NCBI RefSeq assembly: GCF_050920415.1
Contig: NZ_CP169309.1
Source of the DNA: Escherichia coli
GTDB lineage: Bacteria; Pseudomonadota; Gammaproteobacteria; Enterobacterales; Enterobacteriaceae
Reading direction: 5' to 3' (one strand)
Length of the DNA: 64,000 nucleotides
Shown: piece after piece, positions 3,251-5,485 of the stretch
How the letters are laid out: the number at the start of each line of letters is the position of its first letter
Position numbering within the stretch: position 1 is the first letter of the stretch
Position numbers and translations under genes: made by a program
The notes under the pieces: generated by a model
What the model was told of the DNA's origin: nothing
The model's database searches: none
The model's input: the letters and a program-made list of their open reading frames with translations, nothing else

Positions 3251-3374
3251 GCGCGCTCATGGTTGAATTAATGAAATTATGGTGTTAAATAGGCTAGCTT
3301 TTTAAGTCGTGAATATTTGTCAACGCCAAGATTATTGGCCGTTTTTCGCCATTTTTAATGTCCGCTATTGGTCA

Positions 3375-4171
3375 TTAATGTTGTCCGCTTGCCGCCATTT
3401 CATCATCACTGATTGGCGTGGCGTTTTTTGCCAGCACTCCCGCTTTGCGTTTTTCCTTTAACCGGTAGCTTTCTCCTTTGATGTTCAGTGTGGTTGAGTG
3501 GTGTAGCAGTCGATCCAGGATTGCCGTTGCCAGCACGTTATCGCCGAACATCTCTCCCCAGTCGGCGAACCCTTTATTTGACGTCAGCACGATGCTCGCT
3601 TTTTCATATCGACGGTTCAGCAACCGGAAGAACAGACTGGCTTCCTCGCGGGTCATCGGCAGATAGCCTATCTCATCCAGTATCAGTACCCGGGCATAAC
3701 CAAGCTGCTGTAGCTGTTTTTCCAGCCGGTTTTCCTGTTTTGCCTTCATGAGTGTGGCGATCAGCTTATCCAGTGGCATGAACAGCACCCGATGACCAGC
3801 GTCCGCCGCTTTTACCCCGAGAGCGACTGCAGGTGCGTTTTACCCACACCAGGCGGACCCAGCAGGATCACGTTCTCGCTACGCTCCACGAACGCCAGCC
3901 CGGCCAGCTCACGGACGACCTTACGATCGATACCTGGCTGGAAGCCGAAGTCGAACTGCTCCAGCGTTTTGACCCACGGGAAGCGGGCCTGTTTCAGCCG
4001 GGACTCCATACTGCGCTGATGCCTCCCGTTCCATTCCTGCTGCAACGCCATGCACAGGAACTCGCGGTAGTTCAGTTCTTTTTTGGCCGCCTGCTCCAGC
4101 AGGCTTTCAACGTGGTAGCCCAGATGTTCCATTTTAAGACGACCCAGCAGTGTCTCCAGTTCATGCATCAC
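3375..4171 (-). pseudogene. istB: istB (IS21 helper ATPase) with apparent frameshift
   Basis: N-terminal 119 aa fragment with Walker [11 protein letters not shown] (3812-4171) and C-terminal 137 aa fragment (3375-3788) in different frames. Confidence 0.6.
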
Positions 4172-5338
4172 AACAGCTCCTCATAGGCACTCAACGGCCT
4201 GTGTTCCACCTGACTGACCTGCTGCCAGAGTGGGGCGTGATGCTCCGGCACGGTCTGCCAGCCGTATACAGCCGAACAGAGACGGTGCGATGCTACCTGT
4301 TGCTCATTACTGTAGATCCGCAGTTCATCATCCAGCGAGATCCGTATTGATACCGGCTGGCCACACAGGCTTTCCGGCACGCTGTAACGGTTCCCGCCAA
4401 CCTCGATATAGCCATCCCAGGAGACATGACGGATATCGAAGTAGCTGGTATCGAAGTCCGTACCTGGCAGCGCCTGCAGATGCACCTGTTCCTGCGTGAA
4501 GCGCTGTTCCGGTGTCTGCCTGAACTGGCGAAGTCCCGCCTGTCGGCAACGTCAGCCATCCACTGCTCCAGTAGCTGATTAACATGGGCGAAGCTGTCGA
4601 ACCGGCGGTACCGGACGAAGAAGTTTTCCTTGAGGTATTTCACCATCCGTTCCACCTTACCTTTGGTTCTGGCCCTTCGTGGACGGCAGGCCCGTGGCAG
4701 GAAGCCATAGTGATGGCCAGCAGCAGGAACCCGGAGTTGAACACCACCTTCCCGTTGTTATTTTTCAGCACTGCGGCTTTCTGGTTATCGACCAGCACGG
4801 TTTTCACGCTGCCGCCGAAGTAGCGAAAGGCGCGGACCAGTGACTCATAGGTATGTTCAGCATCCTGCTTTGGTGCCGCGAAGACATGGAAGCGACGTGA
4901 GAACCCCAGCGTATTAACCGCGAAGTTAACCCTGCATCGTTGCCCGGCAACCTCAGCCTCAACTTCTCCCCAGTCATGCTGTAGCTGGTAACCGGGCTGA
5001 GTTTCGAAGCGAACCGTTTTCTTCGATGGCCGCATCTTACGTTTGGGCTGGATGTAGTAACGCAACATGGAACGGCCACCGGTATAACCCATCGCTTTGA
5101 TTTCCGCCAGGATGACCTCGCCGTTCCAGACATTCTCAGCCAGACGCATGTCGATATAGTCCATGAACGGCTTGAGTTTGGCCATTTTGTGGCGTGTTTT
5201 TCTGGCCGGAGGTTCCGGGTATTTCAGGTACCGTCTGACAGTCCGCTCAGAGCAACCAACCTGAGTGGCAATATCAACAATATACGCACCTTGCTGGCGC
5301 ATTTGCTTTATCATGTAAAAGTCCTCTCTGCTCAGCAT
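4168..5338 (-). pseudogene. istA: istA (IS21 transposase) split by at least two frameshifts
   Basis: Three consecutive ORF fragments (4640-5338, 4293-4655, 4168-4485) together cover an IstA-like protein. Confidence 0.6.
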
Positions 5339-5485
5339 GAGTGTTCCCTTTGTGGTGTAGGAACCTTAAGGAAACAACATGTTGGGTGGAGCGGACAATC
5401 CAAATGGTGAATTACTGTCTTATATCATTGGCGCTGACATATTCAATTTTTCAACTCATTTTTTTCATAGGGAGGAGTAATTGAC

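Follow-up and report, generated by a model that had tools for sequence, protein, structure and literature searches.

ISEc62 beside a RAZR-like gene in the cos-proximal region of a Cartapus-like Escherichia coli prophage: a presumably recent insertion with ist frameshifts typical of consensus errors

The stretch of Escherichia coli DNA analyzed here (hereafter the window; 64,000 nucleotides of contig NZ_CP169309.1, assembly GCF_050920415.1) harbors, within a prophage of the P2 family, a copy of ISEc62, a catalogued and already known insertion sequence (IS) of this species that belongs to the IS21 family (Table 1). We regard it as highly likely that this copy was acquired through a recent, strain-specific transposition into a Cartapus-like prophage, at the defence hotspot next to its cos, and that the frameshifts interrupting its istA and istB genes are residual consensus deletions.

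Table 1. Features of the window discussed in the text (positions counted from the first nucleotide of the window)
Feature	Positions	Strand	Remarks
DinI-like gene	1961-2266
243-aa ORF	2326-3057
Phage cos 19-mer, GGCGTGGCGGGGATACGAG	3231-3249	+	aligns with P2 cosL, GGCGAGGCGGGGAAAGCAC
Target-site duplication TATT, left copy	3314-3317
ISEc62 (IS21 family)	3318-5439	-	2,122 bp as assembled; full-length match to RefSeq copies
Right TIR (istB-distal)	3318-3402		tip TGTCAA, which read outward is TTGACA (-35 consensus)
istB, AAA+ helper ATPase	4168-3375	-	264 aa once restored; broken at 3829/3830
istA, transposase	5338-4168	-	390 aa once restored; broken at 4714/4715 and 4533/4534
Left TIR (istA-proximal)	5390-5439		minus-strand tip TGTCAG
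Target-site duplication TATT, right copy	5440-5443
DUF4145 gene	5486-6184	+	232 aa; divergent from istA; Cys4 zinc ribbon and DUF4145/HEPN
Portal gene	6193-7230	-
rRNA operon, rrnG-type	16S 54536-56070; 23S 56502-59401

Identity and boundaries of the ISEc62 element

Copies annotated by RefSeq as ISEc62 share 98.3-99.8% identity with the element along 100% of its length (the PGAP/RefSeq label ‘ISEc62 family transposase’ serving here as a proxy for the ISfinder entry), and 865 records contain a place that covers at least 80% of it; as judged from these alignments, the match to annotated ISEc62 is far beyond chance. Its tips (TGTCAACGCCAA at 3318-3329 vs TGTCAGCGCCAA, the reverse complement of 5428-5439) agree at 11 of 12 positions, display the TG...CA form, and are the same as those of three independent ISEc62 copies (E. 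coli E24377A, NC_009801.1; pDEC15A-1; MFDS1022581). These reference copies share with it the length class and the istA-istB order, are each flanked by 4-5 bp duplications of their own and, by alignment, measure 2,125 bp (i.e. 3 bases more than the assembled copy). Inward from the tips we found TGTCCGC subterminal repeats (at 3359 and 3382 on the plus strand, and at 5397-5391 on the minus strand) together with a 22-nt subterminal inverted repeat (3345-3366/5390-5411), multiple subterminal repeats (L1/L2, R1/R2) being the layout described for the TIRs of IS21 (PMC10122671). Furthermore, inspection of the left TIR revealed an extended -10 element (TGaTATAAG, hexamer 5424-5419) situated 15 nt from the tip. 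No second or tandem ISEc62 copy was detected within the window.

The prototype elements IS21 and IS5376 (PMC10122671, PMC11208146) likewise possess an IstA DDE transposase, an IstB AAA+ helper, a terminal CA and subterminal repeats, and they carry, as does the present element by inspection of its sequence, a -35 box in the right and a -10 box in the left TIR that would together make up a junction promoter; the same placement of the two boxes, and the requirement of IstB for integration, are part of IS21 biology (PMC10122671). By sequence they are different elements, and the duplication generated by IS5376 spans 5 bp (vs 4 bp here). The TATT flanks fall within the short target-site duplications (4-8 bp) by which the IS21 family is recognized. 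The first-pass annotation had proposed an IS21-family element with inverted repeats and a 4-bp TATT duplication; the family assignment is borne out by the full-length ISEc62 match, the TG...CA ends and the IstA and IstB profiles, and the repeats and the duplication by the similarity of the tips and the presence of TATT on both flanks. The extent that it had given (3318-5485) stands at its start and has to be shortened at its end to 5439, since 5440-5485 are phage DNA.

Insertion site and host prophage

The window begins within a P2-family prophage, in its replication gene A (gpA ORF end at 1679); the late region of this prophage is 99.9% identical to phage Cartapus (OV696611.1; 33,368 bp; Peduoviridae, Elveevirus) over 21.8 kb, with the portal and terminase genes placed on the minus strand from 6193. 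As the match to Cartapus runs to ~29071, inside ssrA (tmRNA 29027-29389), the prophage is integrated in this gene, and on grounds of similarity the host element is a Cartapus-like P2-family prophage in ssrA. Cartapus has the same cos and, first after it, the same DUF4145 gene; it differs by the lack of the IS, by other cargo between DinI and cos and by another tail-fibre tip segment, and in the gpA region the two are only 94.8% identical. The IS is located within the gpA-gpQ interval (delimited by the gpA end at 1679, with cos inside it, and by the portal gene from 6193), and the interval between gpA and gpQ was described as a defence hotspot of P2 by Rousset et al. (PMC9122126).

The genuineness of the insertion was assessed by rebuilding the empty site (i.e. 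by joining the flanks across a single TATT) and searching for it in genomes. The rebuilt site was recovered unbroken, with one TATT each, in many E. coli genomes: in RM10740 100% of the 2-kb empty-site query was covered, in JSMCR1, LF82 and others the junction was covered at 98-99%, and in phage Cartapus the site is uninterrupted at 99.7%. Because these IS-free relatives (Cartapus included) carry one TATT, we consider the insertion to be real and strain-specific, in line with the earlier claim of a genuine insertion into the phage genome and with the comparison to IS-free relatives that had been proposed alongside it. The IS-phage junction was present in none of the 5,426 RefSeq complete E. 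coli genomes searched, so the insertion is strain-specific and presumably recent; it is also by this site, between cos and the DUF4145 gene, that the copy is set apart from the ISEc62 references.

A misplacement of a repeat copy by the assembler, with no IS truly at this site, would fit with the demonstrably poor base-level handling of repeats in this assembly, and with the absence of the junction from every other genome in the collection. Nevertheless, both junctions fall precisely on the canonical TG...CA tips and are flanked by a perfect 4-bp duplication whose sequence the empty site contains only once, which a mis-join would not yield and which makes mis-assembly unlikely; moreover, other ISEc62 copies have the same kind of 4-5 bp duplications. 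We therefore hold a misplaced copy to be scarcely credible, and retain a true insertion as the preferred reading.

The first-pass annotation had further suggested that the insertion probably renders the prophage too large or defective for packaging. As for cos itself, the 59-bp feature annotated in Cartapus corresponds to positions 3198-3256 of the window, and similarity to the P2 sequence flanking cos fades by ~3280; the IS starts 68 bp beyond the cos 19-mer and 61 bp past the annotated feature. Since cosL aligns at the 19-mer and the similarity to P2 ends before the IS is reached, the IS falls outside the conserved core of cos. A disruption of cos as the cause of a packaging defect was thus rejected on account of the 68-bp gap and of the position of the IS beyond the stretch that aligns with P2. 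With regard to size, we estimated the prophage at ~35.6 kb (assuming a Cartapus-like left arm, which lies outside the window), that is 106-107% of Cartapus and P2. P2-size heads can take P4 trimers (~34.9 kb). The phage records that match the conserved cos-flanking stretch left of the cohesive end range between 32.3 and 34.8 kb; P2-like genomes overall cluster at ~35-40 kb (PMC13100340). We regard ~35.6 kb as borderline and not clearly excessive, and the suggested packaging defect as unsupported. Apart from the IS, the visible rest of the prophage is undamaged.

Single-base deletions in multicopy DNA

As assembled, istB contains one frame disruption and istA two, and the counts made initially from the assembled sequence hold. 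Alignment to the three intact-length ISEc62 copies traced each of them to one missing base: in istB a C between 3829 and 3830, within a Dcm motif (C[C]AGG) immediately past the Walker A motif; in istA a C between 4714 and 4715, within a Dam motif (GAT[C]), and one T of a TT at 4533/4534, which belongs neither to a methylation motif nor to a homopolymer of at least 3 nt. Once the three bases are put back, the element attains 2,125 bp and encodes full-length IstA (280 bits against NCBIfam NF033546, IS21 family transposase, cut-off 160) and IstB (297 bits against NF038214, cut-off 200; Walker A motif GPPGVGKT present). Pfam matches were obtained from the assembled fragments as well (rve, HTH_23 and Mu-transpos_C_2 on those of istA, IstB_IS21 on both of istB), and the istA stop and the istB start share 1 nt, as in the annotation of the reference copies. 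At the DNA level, restored istA does not differ from the gene annotated as intact by RefSeq in MFDS1022581, and in comparison to that copy as a whole the assembled element shows 0 substitutions and 1-bp indels only, the sole further difference (besides the three deletions) being one base absent from the MFDS1022581 copy. The three single bases by which the assembled copy falls short of the ISEc62 references are judged to be artefacts.

As a separate observation, the istB of MFDS1022581, which RefSeq calls ‘frameshifted’, bears the same signature.

Deletions of this class were not confined to the IS. In the rRNA operon we recorded at least 11 window-specific deletions of 1-2 bp relative to both N96 and MG1655, seven of them in the 16S gene (54729, 55159, 55206, 55239, 55310, 55414 and 55453) and four in the 23S gene (57186, 58757, 58801 and 59020), with 6 of the 11 falling in CCTGG or GATC; going by these alignments, seven 16S deletions vs both reference strains are not credible biology. 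Two of the three IS deletions are in CCAGG or GATC, motifs that account for 2.9% of the IS positions (p=0.0025). Conversely, 25 kb of unique chromosome compared with N96 displayed 195 substitutions and 0 deletions, and 21.8 kb of unique prophage compared with Cartapus 23 substitutions and no real indel. Taken together, 14 deletions fell within 6.57 kb of multicopy DNA, whereas 47.1 kb of unique DNA had 0 (p=1.7e-13); Dam/Dcm sites were damaged at 8 of 36 in the former and at 0 of 292 in the latter (p=1e-8).

Dcm sites are prone to C-to-T transitions and are not known as hotspots for 1-bp deletions. True mutation at methylation sites was considered and rejected, as the changes seen are 1-bp deletions and not C-to-T. 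For consensus sequences produced by ONT, on the other hand, ~70% of the errors in Enterobacteriaceae were found to reside within Dcm motifs (PMC6591954), and errors in repeats often outlast short-read polishing (Polypolish). The signature observed here is the one left by long-read consensus errors that stay uncorrected in multicopy DNA, and we consider assembly errors to be the very probable cause of the three ist frameshifts, and the IS copy to be most likely recent, with intact genes. The first-pass annotation had taken the frameshifts as biology and had itself named assembly errors in a recent, intact copy as the outcome that would speak against it; this is the outcome to which the sequence comparison points.

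It could be argued that the insertion is real and that three separate 1-bp deletions did turn the ist genes into pseudogenes, so that the IS is an immobile fossil: E. coli commonly contains decayed IS copies, the deletions are present in the assembled sequence, and the one at 4533/4534 is outside any Dam/Dcm motif. This would entail, however, 0 substitutions and yet three deletions relative to a copy from another strain (the reverse of the normal mutation spectrum), none of them within a long homopolymer and none of them shared with any of the 3,072 matching records. The same deletion class, in the same motifs, moreover riddles the 16S and 23S genes of the window (where a biological origin is impossible) and is missing from 47 kb of unique DNA. 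We thus deem true pseudogenisation very improbable, and consensus error remains the reading on which we rely. As a warning to users of this assembly, its multicopy DNA (IS, rRNA) contains uncorrected single-base deletions, and ‘pseudogene’, ‘frameshift’ or 16S-based calls from the multicopy regions of this genome should be distrusted.

In the scenario that we favor, the IstA DDE transposase would have synapsed the TIRs with their multiple repeats, and IstB, the AAA+ ATPase, would have brought in the AT-rich target (both steps being carried over from IS21 biology), after which staggered cuts would have left the 4-bp TATT duplication. The ist deletions would then represent nanopore-type long-read consensus errors that survived short-read polishing, the latter having presumably failed on the IS because it is multicopy, like the rRNA operon. 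In reality the copy most probably has both IstA and IstB intact, and would still be mobile.

The RAZR-like gene and its upstream region

The start of the DUF4145 gene (5486) is separated by 46 bp from the IS tip (IS end at 5439), as had been noted at the outset. Its product contains the two halves of a Cys4 zinc ribbon (CPRC at 8 and CREC at 46) and matches the Pfam family DUF4145 (E=4.5e-7, 30.3 bits, cut-off 23.1); the only PADLOC match was a weak one to PD-T7-4 (E=1.2e-6, 26 bits, residues 36-200), and a PDB sequence search with the protein gave chance matches only. PD-T7-4, since renamed RAZR, was characterised as a ring-activated zinc-finger RNase and, like the gene described here, is a single-gene system, its Cys4 zinc ribbon lying at the N-terminus and its DUF4145/HEPN domain at the C-terminus (PMC13017515). 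Within the stretch VKDDGNDGAH, K181 and H189 have the 8-residue spacing of R146 and H154, the catalytic residues of the HEPN motif in RAZR; judged from this distance to the His, Lys181 of the DUF4145 protein would stand where RAZR has the catalytic Arg. By its architecture the gene is RAZR/PD-T7-4-like, with a weak profile match. The term ‘orphan’, which had been applied to it, is consequently misleading in view of this architecture and of its location in a known P2 defence hotspot.

The insertion had also been described as landing in the presumptive promoter region of this gene. Since only 46 bp of native upstream DNA remain at the gene, an insertion into the promoter region is plausible; on the other hand, standard promoter and terminator scans retrieved no consensus promoter for the DUF4145 gene on the plus strand, whether the site was taken as empty or as occupied, and a lenient scan yielded weak promoter candidates only. 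The strongest native candidate (TTGAAT, 17 nt, TGtTAAATA at 3263-3291) has been moved 2.1 kb off, together with the rest of the displaced upstream DNA, and given this displacement reduced expression of the DUF4145 gene would be the default expectation. The left tip of the IS offers, in the direction of the gene, CTGACA and, 17 nt further on, a poor -10 (CATTTT), a weak candidate hybrid promoter that could offset such a reduction. The TTGACA of the right TIR points to cos, away from the gene. As regards the transposition genes themselves, the flank supplies a TTGAAT 16 nt upstream of the -10 box of the left TIR (TGaTATAAG), and the two would thus constitute a plausible hybrid candidate promoter for istAB.

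One may go further and propose that selection favored the insertion because of what it does to the RAZR-like gene, either by silencing a costly abortive-infection RNase or by re-driving it from a hybrid promoter, a proposal that is compatible with the explanation preferred above. The reduction of native upstream DNA to 46 bp, the removal of the best native promoter candidate and the -35/-10-like pair at the tip facing the gene speak in its favor, as does the fact that promoter elements are known in IS ends (PMC10122671). Nonetheless, a consensus promoter is absent from both states in the standard scan, the perfect outward -35 sits on the opposite end of the IS and faces away from the gene, the insertion occurs in one genome only (and so gives no sign of recurrence or selection), and IS21 does not show strong target specificity. 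We view selection for this effect as unlikely, and keep to a recent transposition of ISEc62 as our explanation.

The event as such carries little biological weight. IS insertions into prophages are routine, and the finding is ordinary because the IS is a known, catalogued one and its ‘broken’ genes are most likely sequencing errors. A stronger combination, in which an intact IS, a packageable 35.6-kb prophage and an IS tip acting as the new promoter of the RAZR-like gene all hold jointly, appears distinctly unlikely to us. If it were true, the virion DNA of the phage would have an active ISEc62 at its far left end, from where the element would be spread by lysogeny, and the replacement of the native promoter by that of the IS tip would alter the defence phenotype of the lysogen. 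Should the expression of the RAZR-like gene prove to be altered, the locus would provide a small natural example of how an IS can modulate a defence gene that a phage carries in the P2 hotspot.

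Short deletions, frameshifted genes and assembly quality

In the 16S and 23S rRNA genes, comparison to both N96 and MG1655 shows at least 11 deletions of 1-2 bp that are specific to the window, six of which are located at CCTGG or GATC. Judging from the sequence, we consider that these deletions are assembly errors, and because of this the 16S sequence of the source assembly is unreliable. In E. coli MFDS1022581 (NZ_CP169399.1) the istB gene of ISEc62, the IS21-family element also found in the prophage, is annotated by RefSeq as 'frameshifted'; it lacks one G within an overlapping Dam/Dcm context (TC[G]ATCCAGG), and probably represents the same type of artefact as the deletions of the window, present in a public genome. 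For the raiA-bamD stretch of strain N96, the annotation gives an IS4-family transposase remnant with a frameshift; the counterpart of this stretch in the window harbors a 259-aa ORF.

Prophage integration and relation to Cartapus

The P2-like prophage is integrated at ssrA (tmRNA), and its late genes share 99.9% identity with those of Escherichia phage Cartapus across 21.8 kb. Differences between the two are seen in the gpA region, where the identity amounts to 94.8%, and also in the pre-cos cargo and the segment encompassing the tail-fibre tip and invertase.

Features of the prophage, other loci of the window and comparison loci
Feature	Position	Remark
Prophage	window 1-29071
243-aa ORF	window 2326-3057	gpA-gpQ defence hotspot, shortly ahead of cos
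Hairpin	window ~3162-3190	GC-rich, followed by a T-run
cos 19-mer GGCGTGGCGGGGATACGAG	window 3231-3249	homology to P2 cosL
Candidate istAB promoter	window 5419-5446 (minus strand)
RAZR-like (DUF4145) gene	window 5486-6184
Tail-fibre tip and invertase	window ~18690-20479
ssrA	window 29027-29389
raiA-bamD counterpart	window 47909-48688
16S and 23S rRNA genes	window 54536-59401
MFDS1022581 istB	NZ_CP169399.1 locus 3058-3851
N96 raiA-bamD stretch	N96 locus 29477-30188

Cargo and insertion around cos

The 243-aa ORF had zero matches in Pfam or PADLOC; a homologue is present in RM10740 and absent from Cartapus and JSMCR1. The RAZR-like protein displays the motif VKDDGNDGAH at residues 181-189, in which, judged by equal spacing, Lys181 occupies the place of the catalytic Arg of RAZR (R146, then H154), and its HEPN site could be divergent or inactive. 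Upstream of this gene, a TTGAAT contributed by the phage flank lies 16 nt upstream of an extended -10 box (TGaTATAAG) in the istA-proximal inverted repeat (left TIR) of ISEc62, and it is possible that the two form a hybrid promoter that drives istAB and was made by this insertion. In virion DNA, the extreme left end would, since the insertion, hold the IS in addition to the DUF4145 gene.
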